A DNA stretch of 64,000 nucleotides from the NCBI GenBank assembly GCA_964242575.1, contig CAXTCN010000012.1:3204-67203 (forward strand), written 5' to 3'. Within the stretch, counting starts at the first letter, position 1. Each line of letters opens with the position of its first letter. Origin of the DNA: an uncultured Acetobacteraceae bacterium. Its GTDB lineage: Bacteria > Pseudomonadota > Alphaproteobacteria > Acetobacterales > Acetobacteraceae. Positions 5,199-35,766 of the stretch are shown piece after piece. The translations under genes were made by a program, and so were the position numbers. The notes beneath the pieces were generated by a model that made no database searches, was not told the origin of the DNA, and saw only the letters and a list, made by a program, of their open reading frames with translations.

Positions 5199-6160
5199 AG
5201 TTTTGGCAGCGGGCCGGGCTGCGCGCCGGGCTGGCGTTCGGGGCGGCGGCGGGGAAGCCGATCCAGGCGCACGGGCTGGCGATGGACCCGGTGATGTCGG
5301 CGCTGGTGCGGTTCGCGCGCCGCGGGACGCCGCAGTTCGACGGGGTGGCGGCGATGCGCGCGGGCTACGCGGGCGGCCTGGCGGTCACCGGGCTGTGGCC
5401 GACGCCGGGCGTCAGGATGCGTTCCATGGAGGTGGCCGGGCAGCCCGGGCGGCAGTACGACCCGCCGGGCACGGCGCGCGGCAGCCTGCTGTACTTCCAC
5501 GGCGGCGGCTTCATGATGGGCAGCCCGGCCACGCATGACGGCCTGTGCCGGCGGCTGTGCGCGGCGGTGGGCGTGCGGGTGGTCAGCGCGTCGTACCGCC
5601 TGGCGCCCGAGCACCCGTTCCCGGCGGCGCACGAGGACGCGGCGGCGGCGCTGGCGTGGGCGCGGGACGAGCTGCCGGGTCCGTTGCTGGTGGGCGGCGA
5701 CAGCGCGGGGGCGAACCTCGCGGCGGGGCTGGCGGCCGGGCCGGGGCACGGGCTGGCGGCGCAGTTGCTGCTGTATCCCGTGGTGGACATGGTGCGGACG
5801 CCGGGGCGTTACCCCAGCCTGGAGCAGTTCGGCGAGGGCTTCCTGTTGACGACGGAGGCGCTGGAGCAGTGCCAGCAAATGCTGCTGCCGAACGGCGCGG
5901 ACATGGCGGACCCGCGGCTGTCGCCCCTCCGCCGGGACCTGTCGGGGGCGGCGCCGGCGGTGGTGGCGGTGGCGGGGTTCGACCCGTTGGCGGACCAGGG
6001 CCGCGCCTATGCGGCGGCGTTGCGGGCGGCGGGCGTTGATGCGGCGCTGCTGGACGAGGCTGGCCTGGTGCACGGCTACGCGGACTTCGCCGGGGTGGTG
6101 CCGGCGGCGCGCCGGGCGGTGGACCGGCTGGCGGCGGCGTTGGCGGAGCGGCTGCCGTGA
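5195..6160 (+). CDS. Alpha/beta hydrolase, hormone-sensitive-lipase family esterase
   Basis: Intact HGGGF oxyanion motif (LLYFHGGGFMMG) and GDSAG nucleophile elbow (VGGDSAGANLA). ATG 5195 overlaps the previous stop (ATGA). Confidence 0.85.
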   Translation: MKFWQRAGLRAGLAFGAAAGKPIQAHGLAMDPVMSALVRFARRGTPQFDGVAAMRAGYAGGLAVTGLWPTPGVRMRSMEVAGQPGRQYDPPGTARGSLLYFHGGGFMMGSPATHDGLCRRLCAAVGVRVVSASYRLAPEHPFPAAHEDAAAALAWARDELPGPLLVGGDSAGANLAAGLAAGPGHGLAAQLLLYPVVDMVRTPGRYPSLEQFGEGFLLTTEALEQCQQMLLPNGADMADPRLSPLRRDLSGAAPAVVAVAGFDPLADQGRAYAAALRAAGVDAALLDEAGLVHGYADFAGVVPAARRAVDRLAAALAERLP

Positions 6161-6229
6161 CACCACAGTATATAAGGACGGTGTGGGCGTGGTTGCGCCA
6201 GGGCCGGGAACAGGGTGCGGAGAGCTTGC

Positions 6230-6646
6230 ATGCGTAGAGACCCGGTGTTGTTCGCCTGGGTGGCCGGCCTCGGCCTGGCCGCGCTGGTGTATGTCGTGGG
6301 CCCGGACCGGTTCCTGTTCCGGCTGCTGGACACGCTGCACGTGCTGGGCTGGCAGATTGGCGAGTTCATCGCCGACCTGTCGAACCTAGCGTTGGACCTG
6401 GTGCGGGCGCTGGCGATCGGGCTGTATGCCACGTTCCTGGCGCTCGGCATCGCGGTGGCCCGGCGCGGCGGGCGCTCGCGCGGCGCGCTGCTGATCGTGA
6501 GCGTGCTGTTTTTCCTGCTGGCGAACGGGGCGCTGGAGGGCAGCGTGCCGAACGCGCGCTGGATGGCGGCGCTGGTGCTGACGGGCGCTGGAGCCGCGGT
6601 CATGACGGCCCGGCTGCGCCAGCCGGGCACCGTCACGTTACATTAA
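6230..6646 (+). CDS. Small integral membrane protein
   Basis: Four hydrophobic segments (VLFAWVAGLGLAALVYVV, LVRALAIGLYATFLALGIAV, ALLIVSVLFFLLA, MAALVLTGAGAAVM). Confidence 0.55.
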   Translation: MRRDPVLFAWVAGLGLAALVYVVGPDRFLFRLLDTLHVLGWQIGEFIADLSNLALDLVRALAIGLYATFLALGIAVARRGGRSRGALLIVSVLFFLLANGALEGSVPNARWMAALVLTGAGAAVMTARLRQPGTVTLH

Positions 6647-6660
6647 GGCGCGCCGCCGGG

Positions 6661-7038
6661 TCACAGCGTTGCGAGGGCCTCGGCCATGGTCGGCCACTCG
6701 CCGCAATCCGTGCCGGTGCGGCTGCACCAGACGGTGATGGCTTGGCCGTTGCGGGCCAGGCCCCAGCGGGACCATGGGTCGTTTTGGCAGTAAACCAGGG
6801 CGTAGGACGCGCAGTGCGGGCCGGTGTCCGGCAGGCCGGGTTCGATCACGACGCGGCCATAGCGGGCGGCGCCGGCGTGGTTGATCCAGTTATGCAGGGC
6901 GGCGCGGTCCTGCAAGGTGAACCCGCACGGCGGAGCCATGCCCTCGGGCAGGCGGCCGGCCAGGCGGCGCTGGAGCGGGAATTGCAGGATGGTGGCAGTC
7001 GGCGAGACGGCAGGCGATAAGTGTGCAGCGGTGATCAT
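6661..7038 (-). CDS. Hypothetical protein
   Basis: 125-aa ORF with GC3 bias, convergent with the previous gene. Confidence 0.45.
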   Translation of the reverse strand: MITAAHLSPAVSPTATILQFPLQRRLAGRLPEGMAPPCGFTLQDRAALHNWINHAGAARYGRVVIEPGLPDTGPHCASYALVYCQNDPWSRWGLARNGQAITVWCSRTGTDCGEWPTMAEALATL

Positions 7039-29185: not shown

Positions 29186-29404
29186 ATGCCGACGCCGCTG
29201 GAAGTGCTGCTGCGCGTGATGAACCGGAAATGGACGGAGGGGGACGAGGACGGGGCGGTGCAGTTGGCCAAGGCCGCCGCGCCGTATGTCCACCCGCGGG
29301 CGGCGGCGCGGGGGTCAGTGGATTTGGCGGAAGTGGGGGACGATGAGCTGGAACGGATGCACGGCGGCGACGGAGCGGGCGCTGCGGAGGGACCTCCGGA
29401 CTAG
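29186..29404 (+). CDS. Short terminase small-subunit-like protein
   Basis: GGAGG RBS. PLEVLLRVMN...AAKAAAPYVHPR resembles the C-terminal motif of small terminase subunits of alphaproteobacterial phages. Only 72 aa, overlapping the TerL start. Confidence 0.35.
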   Translation: MPTPLEVLLRVMNRKWTEGDEDGAVQLAKAAAPYVHPRAAARGSVDLAEVGDDELERMHGGDGAGAAEGPPD

Positions 29405-30740
29405 CTTCGCGCGCTGGGCCGGGTTCGCGTTGGCGCCGCTGGGCCAGGCGCCGGCGCGGCACCACCGGCTGATGATCCAGGAGCTTGAGGCGGTGGCGCG
29501 CGGGGATTGCGACCGGCTGATGCTGCTGATGCCGCCTGGTTCGGCCAAAAGCACCTACGCCAGCCTGCTGTTCCCGCCGTGGTTCATGGCCCGGCAACCT
29601 GGCGCGCAAGTCATCGCCGTGAGCCATACGGCGGCGCTCGCGGAGGCGTTCGGGCGCGGGGTGCGCGGGGCCGTCACGCAGCACGGCGCGCGGCTGGGCG
29701 TGCGGCTGGACGGCGCAAGCCGGGCGGCGGGGCGGTTCGGGACATCGGGCGGCGGCGGCTATTACGCGACCGGGGTGCGCGGGCCGGTGACCGGGCGCCG
29801 GGCGGATTTGCTGCTGATCGACGACCCGGTGAAGTCCCAGGCGGAGGCCGACAGCGCGCCCCTGCGGGACCGGGCGTGGGACTGGTATCGCTCGGACCTG
29901 GTGACGCGACTGCGTCCCGGCGGGCGGATCGTGCTGGTGATGACGCGCTGGCACCCGGACGACCTCGGCGGACGGCTGCTGGAGGCGGCCGAGCTGGGCG
30001 GGGAGCCGTGGCGCGTGGTGCGCCTGCCGGCGCTGGCGGAGGGCGCCGACGCGCTGGGCCGCGCCCCCGGCGAGGCGCTGTGGCCGGAGTGGGAGGGCGT
30101 GGCCGCGCTGGAACGGAAGCGCCTGGCGGTCGGCGAGCGGGCGTTCGAGGCGCTGTTCCAGCAAAACCCGCGCGTGCCCGGCGGACGGCTGTTCCAGGTC
30201 GGGCGCATGGCAGTGGCGGACCAGCCGGCGGAGGGCGTGAGCGTGCGGGCCTGGGATTTGGCCGCGAGCGCCGGCGGCGACTGGACCGCCGGCGTGCGCC
30301 TGGCGCGCGGCGACGCGGGCGCGTGGCAGGTGCGCGACGTGGTGCGGCTGCGCGGCGGCCCGGAGGACGTGGTGCAGGCCATCCTGCGCACCGCCGAGCG
30401 GGACGGCGCCGGCGTCGCCATCGGCTTGCCGCAGGACCCCGGGCAGGCCGGGCGCAGCCAGGTCGCGTTCCTGACGCGGGCGCTGGCGGGCTGGCGGGTC
30501 ATCAGCGGGCCGGAAAGCGGGGCCAAGGCGACGCGGGCCATGCCGGTCGCGAGCCAGGCGAACGCGGGCAACGTCAGCGTGTTGCGCGCCCCGTGGAACC
30601 GAGCTTTCCTGGAGGAGTTGCAGGACTTCCCGGGCGGCGCGAAGGACGACCAGGTGGACGCCCTGGCGCGGGCGTTCGGGATGCTGCTGGAGGCGCGGAC
30701 GCCGGCGCAGGTGCGGCGGATGGACTGGGGGTTGCGGTGA
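29343..30740 (+). CDS. terL: Terminase large subunit
   Basis: Walker A LMPPGSAKST, Walker B ADLLLIDDPVKS, coupling motif VMTRWHPDDL, and C-terminal nuclease DDQVDAL. Confidence 0.9.
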   Translation: MSWNGCTAATERALRRDLRTSFARWAGFALAPLGQAPARHHRLMIQELEAVARGDCDRLMLLMPPGSAKSTYASLLFPPWFMARQPGAQVIAVSHTAALAEAFGRGVRGAVTQHGARLGVRLDGASRAAGRFGTSGGGGYYATGVRGPVTGRRADLLLIDDPVKSQAEADSAPLRDRAWDWYRSDLVTRLRPGGRIVLVMTRWHPDDLGGRLLEAAELGGEPWRVVRLPALAEGADALGRAPGEALWPEWEGVAALERKRLAVGERAFEALFQQNPRVPGGRLFQVGRMAVADQPAEGVSVRAWDLAASAGGDWTAGVRLARGDAGAWQVRDVVRLRGGPEDVVQAILRTAERDGAGVAIGLPQDPGQAGRSQVAFLTRALAGWRVISGPESGAKATRAMPVASQANAGNVSVLRAPWNRAFLEELQDFPGGAKDDQVDALARAFGMLLEARTPAQVRRMDWGLR

Positions 30741-31712
30741 ATGCGGCGTCGGGCGTTGCTGCTGGGCGTGCTGGCGGCGGGGTGCGCGGGGGATGGCCCG
30801 GGCGTCGCCGCGGACATTGAGGCGGCGGCGGACACGGAGCTGCGGCGGCGTCCCGCGTTCTACGTGAACGGCGAGGCGCGGGGCTGGCTGGTGCGGCGCG
30901 ATGGCCATGAGGCCGGGCTGCTGTGGGGCACCTGGCATGTGGCATACGACGACGCCACGGTGATGCCGCGCGCCGTGCGGGCGCGGTTCAACGCCAGCGC
31001 CAGCCTTACGGTCGAGCGGCTGCTGTCGCGCTCGCAGTACGCGGCGCTGCGCGGCGCGCAGGAGGGCGCAGTGCGGCGTCCGGACCCGTCGGCGCTGTCC
31101 CGGCTGGGCGCGGAAACCTTGGCGGCGCTGGCGGAGGCCGGGGTGGACGCGGGCGACGCCGGGCTGAGCCTGCTGGGCTTGGCGGAGGCGGTCAGCGCCA
31201 ACGCCATGACGGAGCCGGCGCCCATGCTGCCGCACACGGGCATCGTGGACGCCAACCTGGTCGGGTTCGCGCAGAGCATCGGCGTCCCGGTGCGGGCGCT
31301 GGAGGCCGAGGACGGCTACGTTGACCCTTTATATCAAGAGCCGAACGGCCCGGCCGCGGCGGCTCTGCTGCGCCAGGTGCTGCGTCAGGGCCAGGACGCG
31401 CGGGCGTTCCGTCGCGCGCTGCGCTCGTTGTACGCGGCCGGCCGGGTGGACCGCGTGCTGGCCGCGACGGTGGGCTGGCGGGCGGAACCGGCGGACCTGG
31501 CGCGCGACGACGCGGCGCGCGACGGCCTGTTGACCCGGCGCAACCTCGCCTGGCTGCCGGGGCTGGAGCGGACGTTGCGGGAGGACGGGTTCCACTTCGT
31601 GGCGTTCGGCGCCGGGCACTTGATGGGGGATGACGGGGTGGTGGCGCTGTTGCGCGGGCGCGGGTGGGACGTGGCGGCGTGCGTGGCGGATCGGTGCGGG
31701 TTGCCAGCGTGA
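30741..31712 (+). CDS. TraB/GumN-family lipoprotein (cargo)
   Basis: Lipobox LLGVLAAGCAG. ...LLWGTWHV... and ...FVAFGAGHLMGDDGVVALLRGRGWDV are GumN-family end motifs. The ATG abuts the TerL stop (TGAATG). Confidence 0.65.
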   Translation: MRRRALLLGVLAAGCAGDGPGVAADIEAAADTELRRRPAFYVNGEARGWLVRRDGHEAGLLWGTWHVAYDDATVMPRAVRARFNASASLTVERLLSRSQYAALRGAQEGAVRRPDPSALSRLGAETLAALAEAGVDAGDAGLSLLGLAEAVSANAMTEPAPMLPHTGIVDANLVGFAQSIGVPVRALEAEDGYVDPLYQEPNGPAAAALLRQVLRQGQDARAFRRALRSLYAAGRVDRVLAATVGWRAEPADLARDDAARDGLLTRRNLAWLPGLERTLREDGFHFVAFGAGHLMGDDGVVALLRGRGWDVAACVADRCGLPA

Positions 31713-31861
31713 TGGCTTTGGGGGTGATGGGGCTTTGCTCCTGAAGCACTGTTGCCTGTATGCACGGTTTGAAGTGAACAGTTATTCTGAGCGACGCTGA
31801 CGCCCTGACGTCTGCTGGCTTATGGCGGAGATGCAAAGCGAAGCAGGCTGTCGCCAAGATT

Positions 31862-32206
31862 ATGGTGGATGATCGTGAGAATTGCCGCGAGGCATGGGTT
31901 GCGGCAGGGTTCGGCGTGGAGTTTGCCTTGAAGGCGTTAATTCTCAAGCGTGAGAGATTGAACGCGTGGCCTTCGCTGGAGCATCGCCCAGACCTCCATA
32001 TCCATAACCTCAAAAAGCTGTTCAAGATCGCGGGGCTTGATCCGAACGCCGCTCCGACAGACGTGAAGCCAGCGATCCGGCAGGTTTTGGATTGGAACCG
32101 GAATCACGACTATGTGGCCAGGCCGATGCCGCGTAAGGTGGCCCGGTCGATGGTTGAGGCGGCGTTCGGGCCTTCGGGGGTGGTGGAGTGGTTGAAGTCT
32201 CTTTGA
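31862..32206 (+). CDS. Small helical protein, HEPN-like pattern (weak)
   Basis: GFGVEFALKALILKRE...HNLKKLFKIAG...WNRNHDYVARP follows the HEPN helix pattern, but no clear Rx4-6H motif is present. The frame is open upstream to 31778 without a canonical start. Confidence 0.4.
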   Translation: MVDDRENCREAWVAAGFGVEFALKALILKRERLNAWPSLEHRPDLHIHNLKKLFKIAGLDPNAAPTDVKPAIRQVLDWNRNHDYVARPMPRKVARSMVEAAFGPSGVVEWLKSL

Positions 32207-32721
32207 CCTTGGACCCAAAGATCAGCGCCGCCGCCGAACGCGCGCTTGACAGCCGGCGCATGCAAGCCGGCAAGGAGTATCTGGACGCGCTGCATCGGCT
32301 GGGCCTTGAGCCGGATGTGTTTTGCTGGATTTACGACGCAGTCGAGGACGGGATTGAACTTGCCATTGTTACGTCCATCGCAGAGCGTATTGGCAGCCTG
32401 GACATCTACAAGCTCTTGTTCCGTGCTTATGAGGCTGCGGCGACGCCACGCGACATAGACCCGTTTATTGTATCCATCTATGGTCCCAACTCGTTCTATG
32501 GTGCCATGCTGCGCGAGCACATTCGCACTCTGGCGGCAGACGGAGCGTTCTCCGATCCTGGAAACGCCACGCGGTTCACGACAGTCATGGAAAACTCGGC
32601 CGAGCTTAAAGTCATGCTTGCCCGAGGTGTGTATGCGAGGGGAGACACTCGCAGGTCAGCAGCCCAAGATTTGAAGAGATGGAGCCGTTTTAAGCAGAAC
32701 GTGGAAGCGCTGGCTGCGTGA
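32188..32721 (+). CDS. Hypothetical protein coupled to the preceding gene
   Basis: GTG 32188 or TTG 32203 (TTGA overlap with the upstream stop). 170-177 aa with no recognised motif. Confidence 0.45.
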   Translation: MVEVSLTLDPKISAAAERALDSRRMQAGKEYLDALHRLGLEPDVFCWIYDAVEDGIELAIVTSIAERIGSLDIYKLLFRAYEAAATPRDIDPFIVSIYGPNSFYGAMLREHIRTLAADGAFSDPGNATRFTTVMENSAELKVMLARGVYARGDTRRSAAQDLKRWSRFKQNVEALAA

Positions 32722-32959
32722 AGGCGGCTTTCTCAAAGTATTGACAATCGAGGCGCCTGGCCGTGCGGCCAGTGGTCCTTTCCAACCCGCGACGCCGGAT
32801 GCGCCAGCGCCGCACCCGTAGCGGCTCGGCGCAGTGCCCTTATCTGGCATCCGGCGACAGTATGGTCGTGTGCGGCGCGTGCGCGCGACCACTGTGGGTT
32901 GCTGGCATTACGGTACGGCCGGCAGGCTGTTTCGGAACCACTTTCAGGCAGATGGATTG

Positions 32960-33574
32960 ATGGCGTCACGCCGGGATTACAAGGCTGCACTAAGCAATCT
33001 CCACAGGCTCCGACGAGTTGGGCCGGGCACCATGCCGCTGTTCAAGCAGCTACATCAGTGGATTCAATCTCTTGACGTGCATCATAGCGATGACCGAGAG
33101 GCAACGTTGATTGCGTTTACCTTCCTGGAACAGTCTCTTGAGATTCTGCTGTTGCAGCATTGGAGTCTGGTGGGGTCAGAACGAGGTTCGAAGCTATTTA
33201 ATTCGGCTGGTGAGCGGGATGCGGTGCTAGGTTCTGCATATTCTCGGGCCCTAATGGCAGAGTGTTTGGGATTGATAAGCAATAATACCTTCAAAGACGT
33301 ACAAACTGTAAACTTTATTAGGAACACATTTGCCCACTCAGGACACTCGATTAATTACGGTAATGATGATATTGAGACTTTATCCCACCTGAATACGATG
33401 GGCCAGTTTGGAGAAAGACACACAATAACGCTTGAGAATGGGTCTGCTCTGTTCAATCTTAATCTGAGTACTGCCAGGTCGCGTATTTTCTCCTTTATTC
33501 TGTTCTTTTCTCTTTACTGCACAGTCTCCCCTGCTGACGACGGTGAAAAGCCGTTTAAGTCTGTGTTCTCTTAA
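32960..33574 (+). CDS. MtlR-like HEPN-domain protein
   Basis: AVLGSAYSRALMAECLGLISNNTFKDVQTVNFIRNTFAHS matches the MtlR/HEPN helix pair, including R-N-x-x-A-H (Rx4H). ATG 32960 is chosen within track ORF 32834..33574. Confidence 0.6.
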   Translation: MASRRDYKAALSNLHRLRRVGPGTMPLFKQLHQWIQSLDVHHSDDREATLIAFTFLEQSLEILLLQHWSLVGSERGSKLFNSAGERDAVLGSAYSRALMAECLGLISNNTFKDVQTVNFIRNTFAHSGHSINYGNDDIETLSHLNTMGQFGERHTITLENGSALFNLNLSTARSRIFSFILFFSLYCTVSPADDGEKPFKSVFS

Positions 33575-33650
33575 GATAGCCCTAGCCAACGCGCCGGGCA
33601 CTTCCCCGTGGTCGCAAGCGGCAACCAAGGCGGCAGCAGCGGCAGAGTGC

Positions 33651-33929
33651 TCAGGAGGACGCCGCCGCGGATGGAGGTTGCCCGAACCCGAACACACCAA
33701 AGAAGCTGGCGCGATGCGCAGCCAGCCACGCCGGCGCGGCATGGCCCAGCGTGCCGGTGATCACCGACCGGTCAAGCGTCGCGATCTTGTCGAAACGCAC
33801 GACGGACGGCACCTTGAGGCCGGTGTCGGCAGTGGCGGCAATGGGCGCGGTGCCAGGCCCGGCACGCGGCACGGACGTGATGAAGCATACCACAGGGTCC
33901 GAACGCCCATCGTTGTCACGCGACACCAC
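33651..33929 (-). CDS. PemK/MazF-family toxin; conserved N-terminus lies upstream of the first canonical start
   Basis: ...VVSRDNDGRSDPVVCFITSV...GLKVPSVVRFDKIATLDRSVITGTLG is MazF-like. The preceding in-frame codons encode GSIVLARFPFTDLSGDKRRPAR. Confidence 0.65.
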   Translation of the reverse strand: MVSRDNDGRSDPVVCFITSVPRAGPGTAPIAATADTGLKVPSVVRFDKIATLDRSVITGTLGHAAPAWLAAHRASFFGVFGFGQPPSAAASS

Positions 33930-34007
33930 CCGGGCCGGACGGCGCTTGTCGCCCGACAGATCGGTGAACGGGAACCGCGCCAGGACGATGCTGCCGAACG
34001 CGCACGC

Positions 34008-34229
34008 CTACCAGCCCGGCCTCATCAAGTCGGCGTCAGTATAAAGGTCAGGCTCCTCAGCCAGCCAGTCGAACGCGCCGCCGGCCTGCGCCAAGGCCGC
34101 CATGGGCAAATCCGCGTCACCGATTACCTCCACCAGCACATGCACCCGCGTGCCGGCGGCGATGCCGCGGCGGACCAGTTCGGCCGAGACCTGTCCGGCC
34201 TCGGCGTCAAGCGCGATCTTCTGCATCAA
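34008..34229 (-). CDS. Putative antitoxin of the MazF-like gene
   Basis: 73-aa acidic ORF immediately upstream, ending ...FDWLAEEPDLYTDADL. Confidence 0.5.
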   Translation of the reverse strand: MMQKIALDAEAGQVSAELVRRGIAAGTRVHVLVEVIGDADLPMAALAQAGGAFDWLAEEPDLYTDADLMRPGW

Positions 34230-34383
34230 GCCGTCTCCCTCTCAACACCCAACCTACTCCGGCCAAGCCGCTCCTGTCCGCCCTGATGTGCGCAACAGGC
34301 GATGCGCGACGTTCGTAAGAAAACAATCCTTGCCCCGCAACCCCACAAAGTCCATGCCATCCCGATAGAATGCCGGGGGGCGC

Positions 34384-35766
34384 ATGTTCCAAACCATCTG
34401 CGACACGATACCGCGCGACCCGGACGCCTCCGCCCGAGCGCGCCGGCTGGAACTGATGGGGCAGGTGCTGGACGGCACCCTGTATGACGCCCTGCCGCAC
34501 GAGTTCCATGAGGAACGCTCGGCGTCCGGCGAGTACATCCCGCTGCGGCGCAGGCGCCCGTCGGTGCGGTACGCCCTGGCGCGCGTGGTGGTGGAGGACA
34601 GCGTGGCGCTGCTGTTCAGCGCCGGGCACTTCCCGGTGGTCGCCAGCGATAACGAGGCGGTGCGGGACGCCCTGTTGGCGCTGGGGCGGGAGTGCCGGTT
34701 GAACCGGGTGATGACCGACGCGGCCATCCGCGGCAGCGTCGGCTCGGTCGCCATCCTGATGCGCGTGCTGCAAGGCCGGGTGTTCCTGGACGTGCTGGAC
34801 ACGGCCTGGCTGGTCCCGGCGTGGGAGCCGGACGCGCCGGACGTGCTGGCGCGCGTGGTGGAGCGCTACAAGGTGCCGGGCGCCGAACTCGCGGCGGCGG
34901 GCTACGCCGTTGCGGACCCGGCCGCCGCGTACTGGTTCCAGCGGGAATGGGACACCGAGCACGAAACCTGGTTCCATCCGCACGCCGTGGGCGCGTCGGA
35001 TGCGCCGCAGCGGGACCGGGGGCGCAGCGTGCGGCACGGCCTGGGGTTCGTGCCGGTGGCGTGGATACGCAACCTGCCCGGCGGCATCGCCCCCGACGGC
35101 GCATGCACGTTCCGCGCGGCGGTCGAGACCGGGATCGAGATCGACTACCAGCTCAGCCAAGCCGGGCGGGGCCTCAAGTACTCGAGCGACCCTACGCTGC
35201 TCATCAAGGAACCCGCCGGCATCGAGGGCGAGCTGGTGCGCGGCGCGGGCAACGCCCTGGTGGTGGGGGAAAAGGGCGACGCGCGCCTGCTGGAGATCGG
35301 CGGCACAGCCGCTGCGGCGGTGCTGGACTACGTGCGGACGCTGCGGGAGCTGGCGCTGGAGGGCGTGCACGGCAACCGCGCGGACGCGAGCCGGCTGACC
35401 GCGCAGTCCGGCCGGGCGATGGAGATGATGAACCAGGGCCTGGTGTGGCTCGCGGACCAACTGCGCGTCAGTTACGGCGAGGGGCTGCTGCAACTGTGCC
35501 GGATGATGCTGCGGGCCGGCGCGCGCTATCCGCTGCGGGTGGGCGGCGCGCTGGTCGGGCCGCTGGATGCCGAGGCCGGGCTGAGCCTGGTGTGGCCGCC
35601 CTGGTACCCCGCCACCAGCGAGGACCGGGCGCGGGACGCGGGCACGGTCATTGCACTGGTGGAGGCCGGGCGCATGAGCGAGGCGACGGCGCTGCGATTG
35701 TTGGCGGCGGACTGGGGTTTCGACCCGGCTGCCGAGGCTAAACGCTTGGAAGGGAACGCGAAATGA
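34384..35766 (+). CDS. Putative portal protein
   Basis: 460 aa, the first large morphogenesis-size ORF after terminase, with a 4-nt overlap with the scaffold-like gene. Assigned by position and size only. Confidence 0.55.
   Translation: MFQTICDTIPRDPDASARARRLELMGQVLDGTLYDALPHEFHEERSASGEYIPLRRRRPSVRYALARVVVEDSVALLFSAGHFPVVASDNEAVRDALLALGRECRLNRVMTDAAIRGSVGSVAILMRVLQGRVFLDVLDTAWLVPAWEPDAPDVLARVVERYKVPGAELAAAGYAVADPAAAYWFQREWDTEHETWFHPHAVGASDAPQRDRGRSVRHGLGFVPVAWIRNLPGGIAPDGACTFRAAVETGIEIDYQLSQAGRGLKYSSDPTLLIKEPAGIEGELVRGAGNALVVGEKGDARLLEIGGTAAAAVLDYVRTLRELALEGVHGNRADASRLTAQSGRAMEMMNQGLVWLADQLRVSYGEGLLQLCRMMLRAGARYPLRVGGALVGPLDAEAGLSLVWPPWYPATSEDRARDAGTVIALVEAGRMSEATALRLLAADWGFDPAAEAKRLEGNAK

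Follow-up and report, generated by a model that had tools for sequence, protein, structure and literature searches.

Two small overlapping genes, here called A and B, sit among head genes in the window, the whole 64,000-nt stretch of Acetobacteraceae DNA that was analysed. What do they encode, do they act as one unit, and could that unit still work in a genome in which A has no usual start codon at its full length? Features of the locus are listed below by position in the window.

29286-30740: T4-type large terminase gene, left of the pair
30741-31712: gene for a TraB/GumN protein, left of the pair
31754..32856, + strand: block shared with contig L008 at 75% nucleotide identity, from 33 nt 5′ of A to about 135 nt 3′ of B
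31775..31777, + strand: in-frame TGA bounding the gene A frame on its 5′ side; L008 has the same stop four codons before its start
31787..32206, + strand: gene A at full family length, 139 aa, predicted to be of HEPN-T type; the first codon is CTG, where homologues have TTG, GTG or ATG
31862..32206, + strand: canonically started form of gene A, ATG to TGA, 114 aa, without helix 1 (P0001 in public data)
32188..32206, + strand: A/B overlap of 19 nt; B lies in the +1 frame, and translation is presumed to be coupled here
32188..32721, + strand: gene B, GTG to TGA, 177 aa, ending in -ALAA; homologues of 175-181 aa have the same N-terminus
32795..32856, + strand: conserved non-coding element 3′ of B, ~60 nt, with 9-bp perfect inverted arms GCCGGATGC / GCATCCGGC
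32960-33574: third ORF of the islet, with a canonical Rx4H (RNTFAH)
33651-34229, − strand: MazF/PemK-like toxin remnant with a conserved N-terminus (GSIVLARFPFTDLSGDKRRPARVV...) and no canonical start
34384-35766: portal gene, right of the pair

The DNA around the pair stands out by composition, forming an islet of 3.6 kb with 45-61% G+C against a background of 73-79%; the A-B module has 55-61%. The terminase and portal genes of related genomes lie next to each other, separated by gaps of 31-137 bp or overlapping; the islet is thus an insertion, and the A-B pair appears from these comparisons to be cargo in low-GC DNA placed between the two genes.

Gene A: a HEPN-like protein and its start codon

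The original prediction had placed gene A between ATG 31862 and TGA 32206, had noted that its frame stays open for 28 more codons from 31778 without an ATG, GTG or TTG, and had taken this stretch for the usual first helix. Both ORFs of the pair lie at their predicted coordinates, and the gene A frame is indeed open up to the TGA at 31775-31777, with none of the three start codons before 31862. A search of 5.8 billion proteins returned 32 gene A relatives, mostly of 137-142 aa, and the 28 upstream codons align residue by residue with the N-termini of the ~139-aa homologues. An AF2 model of the 142-aa translation agrees with this alignment, with helix 1 spanning residues 12-29. The upstream codons are thus true coding sequence for the first long helix, as had been suggested.

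Comparison with relatives indicates how the start came to be missing. In the closest one, contig L008 (81% identity), the sequence TGA-ACA-TCC-GCT-TTG (TTG at 362) stands where the window has TGA-ACA-GTT-ATT-CTG (31775-31789; CTG at 31787), and L009 carries a GTG one codon past the position of the window CTG. All 22 of the other distinct close gene A loci have an ATG, GTG or TTG at HMM position -2 to +5; the window alone has none. The start-region bases were identical in an independent Logan assembly of the same organism's reads, at 17x. A canonical start is lacking because the family start codon is CTG in the window, and it appears to have been lost by a TTG to CTG change in this genome. Either translation initiates weakly at CTG, or only the 114-aa form without helix 1 can be made. 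On this alignment the public annotation would need correcting, with gene A spanning 139 codons from a CTG start in place of the 114-aa protein.

Family assignment drew on both fold and distant relatives. Window gene A falls below every Pfam threshold, including that of PF05168, and has no PADLOC or NCBIfam match; its only PHROGs match is phrog_5737, whose function is not assigned, and a PDB sequence search with its profile returned no match. The AF2 model is all-helical (pLDDT 92.8), and its best PDB fold match is 4nqf_A, a 'HEPN domain protein', with prob 0.99 and TM 0.57 at a weak Foldseek E of 0.13. Further fold matches, at E of at least 0.13, were 3o10 (sacsin HEPN), 3brj (MtlR), 5yep_C and 7bxo_G, with HepT-type toxins among the list. 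PF05168 is matched weakly by 4 of 24 close gene A members (best E 0.016), and its gathering threshold of 22 bits is passed by the distant relatives L044 (27.8 bits) and L074 (22.2 bits), which are tied to gene A by profile at E about 1e-17. The fold match and these relatives bear out the HEPN-like character first read from the letters, and point to gene A as a HEPN-fold protein of the PF05168 'HEPN-T' kind.

Across 100 distinct family sequences, E48, L51, K52, H76 and L81 are invariant, and W106 (97%) and Y112 (95%) nearly so. An arginine occupies either position 111 (Y-1; 70%) or position 108 (Y-4; 26%), the latter in the window's clade. The canonical Rx4-6H, which the original prediction had found missing, is absent in the alignment as well: the window reads R108-N-H-D-Y, no His follows at +5 to +7, and H110 is not conserved. 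Conservation nonetheless follows what looks like an enzyme-like polar set. The protein has a pI of 9.7.

For HEPN-T domains, Anantharaman et al. 2013 (PMC3710099) describe the loss of the motif His and the presence of another conserved His on the N-terminal side of the motif, which may combine with a retained basic residue into an alternative site. Gene A shares with them the fold, the G-x-A-V-E-x-A-L-K-A helix, the T-H-x-L segment and the W...R-Y region; it likewise lacks the motif His while H76 is invariant N-terminal to the motif and a basic residue is retained. It differs in that the window gene and its close clade fall below the PF05168 threshold, in that the Arg of this clade is shifted from Y-1 to Y-4, and in that its partner, which is not a minimal nucleotidyltransferase, sits downstream rather than upstream.

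Gene B and its pairing with gene A

Two starts had been offered for gene B, GTG 32188 or a TTG within the TTGA at 32203-32206. The first stands, since L008 has an ATG at the position of the GTG and 177-aa relatives begin MVE there; TTG 32203, with its 4-nt overlap, was rejected because the homologues back the GTG. This comparison makes gene B 177 aa long, against 153 aa in the public annotation.

Gene B is 73% identical to its nearest relative and belongs to a family of 237 clusters at 50% identity, gathered by exhaustive profile search. Its confident structure model (pLDDT 88.5) is mixed alpha/beta and has no fold match in PDB or BFVD, Foldseek giving nothing better than E 0.05 with TM below 0.3. 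The window gene has no match in Pfam, NCBIfam or PADLOC, 47 family members yielded no consistent Pfam match and no sensor domain, and no DNA-binding domain for autoregulation was seen in gene B. A PDB match of the profile to a designed helical-repeat protein covers the 'LGLDPD' turn only and was discarded as spurious. Over 150 members the conserved positions are structural only (A27, G28, L38, G39, W47, L58, G69, L77, A80, Y81, P87, P92), and no polar residue reaches 90% conservation in these sequences. Gene B appears to have no conserved catalytic residue and to be non-enzymatic.

A GS-x18-DID string is present in gene B (G69-S70 ... D89-I-D91), which the original prediction had considered insufficient for calling a nucleotidyltransferase. 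That caution was well placed: the string is not a conserved signature, position 70 being Pro in 72% of the family and D91 conserved in 73% only, and hhalign against an MNT profile from related genomes gave 0.56%. With no Pfam match in the 47 members and no nucleotidyltransferase fold match either, this assignment was rejected.

The C-terminus is the single conspicuous feature of the protein. Among 166 relatives, 149 end in -AA and 104 in -LAA. An -LAA-type end is the ssrA-type ClpXP C-motif 1 (PMC9775585 Table 2), and the gene B tail resembles such a degradation tag, making it a putative one. Short partner subfamilies, the E. coli one included, lack the -AA end, and a degron is therefore not the general mechanism of the pair. 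The pI of gene B is 5.5, and some partners at other loci are basic.

The two genes occur together well beyond this genome. A complete overlapping downstream ORF in the +1 frame is present in 117 of the 130 loci with a gene A homologue, the overlap measuring 16-34 nt across these 117 and 22 nt in distant clades. Wherever the available DNA is long enough, A is followed by such a partner. This is the co-occurring, coupled pair that had been predicted, with coupling itself presumed from the overlap. The gene B profile matches most overlapping partners, the main exception being the E. coli-type clade. Partner subfamilies of about 127-134, 160-180 and ~190 aa are mutually homologous (hhalign 82.6-99.1%) and have in common a core of the N-terminal ~100 residues, with a varying C-terminal part. 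In the same loci A profiles match at E about 1e-17 versus 1e-5 to 1e-10 for B profiles, and gene B appears to evolve faster than gene A. By these comparisons A and B make up a single module of a widespread family, carried mostly on phages and prophages.

Some ORFs resemble rearranged forms of the pair. P0184 and P0122, from the representative library, look like in-frame A-B fusions; P0130 and P0151 are long ORFs resembling a frameshifted A read into the B frame; and P0131 has an internal deletion joining A and B sequences.

Loci bearing the pair were found in Sphingomonas aerolata, a Caulobacter MAG, IMG/VR contigs (41 loci), metagenomes (80 loci examined out of at least 347 matches) and E. 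coli lambdoid prophages. Occurrence is sporadic: 1 of 61 relatives has the pair, as do 3 of 401 genomes of the class; among complete E. coli genomes, 190 of 5426 carry the pair, at an identity of at least 99%. Its position varies, mostly over sites usual for phage cargo: beside a lambda-type terminase, among tail genes (L007 and L005), or, in one case, as a stand-alone chromosomal cassette with no phage genes (L006). The E. coli prophage relative of gene A matches PADLOC model PDLC04558 (candidate PDC-M28A) at 1.8e-7, a likeness of this member of the gene A superfamily to component A of PDC-M28; in contrast, window A and B and all partners tested match no PADLOC model. The literature searched contained nothing on the A-B pair, on PDC-M28 or on the protein accessions of the E. 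coli pair.

The distant E. coli-type pair lies between replication gene P and ybcN/ninE, in the lambdoid nin region (L044 9917-10713; L160, E. coli E2865, 6001-6797). Its HEPN protein has 138 aa, and the overlapping partner, of 133 aa, has no -AA end; RefSeq names the two 'HEPN domain-containing protein' and 'hypothetical protein'. The RefSeq accessions of the E. coli prophage pair are WP_001038620.1 and WP_000520500.1.

A candidate toxin-antitoxin module and its alternatives

How the family decays is informative about the roles of the two genes. Gene A is damaged with its partner intact in five loci: the window (start codon), L059, L065, L082 (split A) and L162 (IS insertion). The reverse was seen once, in an isolate-derived IMG/VR contig (L016 10354-10856) where B is frameshifted and A intact. 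That frameshift is either a sequencing error or a counter-example to the idea that A is toxic alone; if real, it would mean that A alone is tolerated. At L162 (G315:C3, 182-2213) an IS256-type transposase gene replaces the N-terminal part of the A homologue, and the short-type partner downstream is intact.

We consider the pair most likely, with slightly better than even confidence, to be a type II-like toxin-antitoxin or abortive-infection module in which A is the toxin and B a labile antitoxin, the toxin being attenuated in this genome. We read A as the toxin and B as its labile, coupled antitoxin because A is basic and has invariant polar residues, while B has none, evolves faster, is acidic and carries a tag-like end. 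A is also read as the toxin because it is the gene found damaged in the five loci against a single reverse case, and because the MazF-like toxin nearby likewise has no start. The gene layout is that of type II toxin-antitoxin systems in general: two small, co-directional, overlapping genes that co-occur and are sporadic. Caution comes from L016, from the subfamilies without -AA and from the lack of a defence-database match for the window's clade. Also counting against the model are the missing canonical HEPN motif of A, its weak Foldseek E and sub-threshold Pfam scores, the absence of a visible DNA-binding domain in B and the lack of a promoter or terminator consensus.

Under this toxin-antitoxin model, A would be the effector, an RNase or RNA-binding toxin acting via the alternative His/Arg site proposed for HEPN-T. 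B, presumably translated by coupling from a start inside the last codons of A, would bind and neutralise it, and the C-terminal -LAA would make B a ClpXP substrate that must be made continuously. If host expression were stopped, by phage infection for instance, B would be lost by decay and A would become active, with abortive infection, superinfection exclusion or addiction to the element as the outcome. In this genome the CTG start would leave toxin A probably poorly made, or made as a truncated, inactive 114-aa form, next to an intact B.

As the closest working analogue of this model we propose RnlAB. In that system a HEPN toxin gene precedes the gene of an antitoxin whose instability depends on Lon/ClpX, and the system's anti-T4 activity involves loss of the antitoxin when host expression stops (PMC11869752). 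The A-B pair has in common with RnlA-RnlB and LsoA-LsoB the toxin-first order with a HEPN-superfamily toxin, and an unstable antitoxin is the model proposed for B. It differs in that A and B have no Pfam RnlA or RnlB matches and no sequence relation to either system, and in that A is a bare 139-aa HEPN domain, whereas RnlA is a much larger multi-domain protein. HepT/MntA (HEPN-MNT, type VII) also combines a small HEPN protein with one adjacent overlapping gene, often on mobile DNA. However, B is no MNT (no relation to PF01909, hhalign 0.56%, and no conserved GS...DxD), A is without the Rx4HxY motif and its AMPylated Tyr, and the gene order is reversed; for these reasons neutralisation by AMPylation is not expected.

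A bolder version of the model, which we offer tentatively and hold to be less than an even chance, is that the pair represents a new toxin-antitoxin or abortive-infection family of broad distribution. In it a minimal HEPN-T protein with a non-canonical His/Arg/Tyr/Lys/Glu site would be restrained by an antitoxin of new fold whose stability is set by an ssrA-like -LAA tail of its own, so that the module would read out ClpXP activity and translation, and the E. coli prophage copy would serve in anti-phage defence.

Other arrangements would account for parts of the same evidence. The pair could be a phage-defence sensor-effector in which B, by its variable C-terminal half, detects a protein or signal of the phage and frees or activates A, the HEPN effector, with turnover of B not being the trigger. 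Such a division would suit partners that keep an N-terminal core of ~100 residues and differ by subfamily in their C-terminal part (127-134, 160-180 and ~190 aa), as is often so in sensors; it would also suit the subfamilies that have no -AA end, the moron or hotspot positions in phages (E. coli nin region, beside terminase, between tail genes) and the match of the E. coli A to PDC-M28A. We nonetheless regard it as unlikely, given that B contains no known sensor domain that we could find, that the strong conservation of -LAA in two subfamilies is better explained by turnover, and that L006 is a chromosomal copy standing apart from any phage genes. Far less probable still is a reversal of roles, in which B would be the harmful protein, kept low by ClpXP via -LAA, and A a non-catalytic HEPN-fold antitoxin or adaptor. 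Caulobacter SocAB offers a precedent, in which ClpXP keeps the harmful SocB low; A is the leading gene of the operon, the usual place of an antitoxin, and has no Rx4-6H, and it is B that bears the degradation-tag-like end. Yet the invariant polar residues typical of an active site are in A and none are in B, B is the faster-evolving of the two, and the loss of A beside an intact B at five loci, once by IS insertion, would be lethal if A were the antidote.

The remaining two readings concern this genome and this element in particular. In the window the pair might be a decaying remnant, with A a pseudogene through start loss, B an orphan, and no present function. The CTG start, unlike that of all 22 close relatives, speaks for this, as do the neighbouring MazF-like toxin that is also without a start and the fact that the islet is an insertion; but the A frame is otherwise intact over 139 codons with all conserved residues kept, B is intact at 73% identity to its nearest relative, and table 11 allows CTG as a bacterial start, though a weak one. 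We judge a remnant distinctly improbable, and a remnant here would in any case be compatible with the toxin-antitoxin explanation for the family as a whole. Scarcely credible, finally, is an accessory role for A and B in virion assembly or packaging of the phage-like element: they do lie among head genes here and among tail genes in L007 and L005, but terminase and portal adjoin without A-B in the element's relatives, the position differs from phage to phage (nin region, beside a lambda-type terminase) and extends to plain chromosome, and the G+C content of A-B is foreign to the element.

Among defence effectors, HEPN toxins form a major class, and a HEPN toxin module on mobile DNA is already known as a kind of system. 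To our knowledge, small HEPN modules are either neutralised by nucleotidyltransferases (HepT/MntA) or found within large multi-domain toxins (RnlA). In the A-B pair a bare HEPN-T domain has another kind of partner, from a family without a Pfam, PDB or BFVD relative, and the pairing spans soil Alphaproteobacteria to E. coli prophages. The literature searched contains no description of this partner family, of a toxin-first overlapping layout for a bare HEPN-T or of the -LAA end built into B. If the toxin-antitoxin model is right, B would have a new antitoxin fold, A could serve to test the alternative active site proposed for HEPN-T, and the pair would illustrate in simple form how a genetically encoded ssrA-like degron can work as a timer. 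Through its E. coli version the pair is open to direct testing in laboratory strains.

The islet and the element that carries it

Regulatory sequence was sought around the cassette. No usable promoter or terminator consensus was found there, and Rfam gave no match on it. The element at 32795-32856 is about 85% conserved with L008, against 75% for the coding parts; it has no Rfam match, no second copy in the window and none in IMG/VR, and its fold z-score of -1.2 is not significant. Possible roles for it are those of a terminator, of a regulatory RNA or of a site of recombination.

At the left edge of the variable DNA, biocrust metagenome contigs match the 3′ end of the TraB/GumN gene (31651-31701) and diverge at about 31697-31701. 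Repeats flanking the A-B cassette are short and at chance level. A perfect 13-nt direct repeat, GCGCCGGGCACTT, at 31609-31621 and 33591-33603, 1982 bp apart, brackets the part containing A, B and the third ORF, and is itself near chance level.

Of 121 genomes of the family, 69 have a single copy of the portal gene, at 60-79% identity, and in relatives the terminase adjoins it directly (29286-35766; loci L133-L141). Given this conservation and adjacency, the 'prophage' resembles an element of phage origin, perhaps GTA-like, that is conserved by vertical descent and takes up cargo between terminase and portal. At the same terminase-portal site L135 carries about 1 kb.

The third ORF (32960-33574) lies outside the cassette common with L008 and has weak MtlR-type HEPN matches (PF05068, E 0.054; phrog_22031, 1.3e-6). 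The MazF-like gene follows the TAG of its antitoxin ORF in the same frame; the antitoxin is intact, and the gene is the second toxin of the islet without a usable start.
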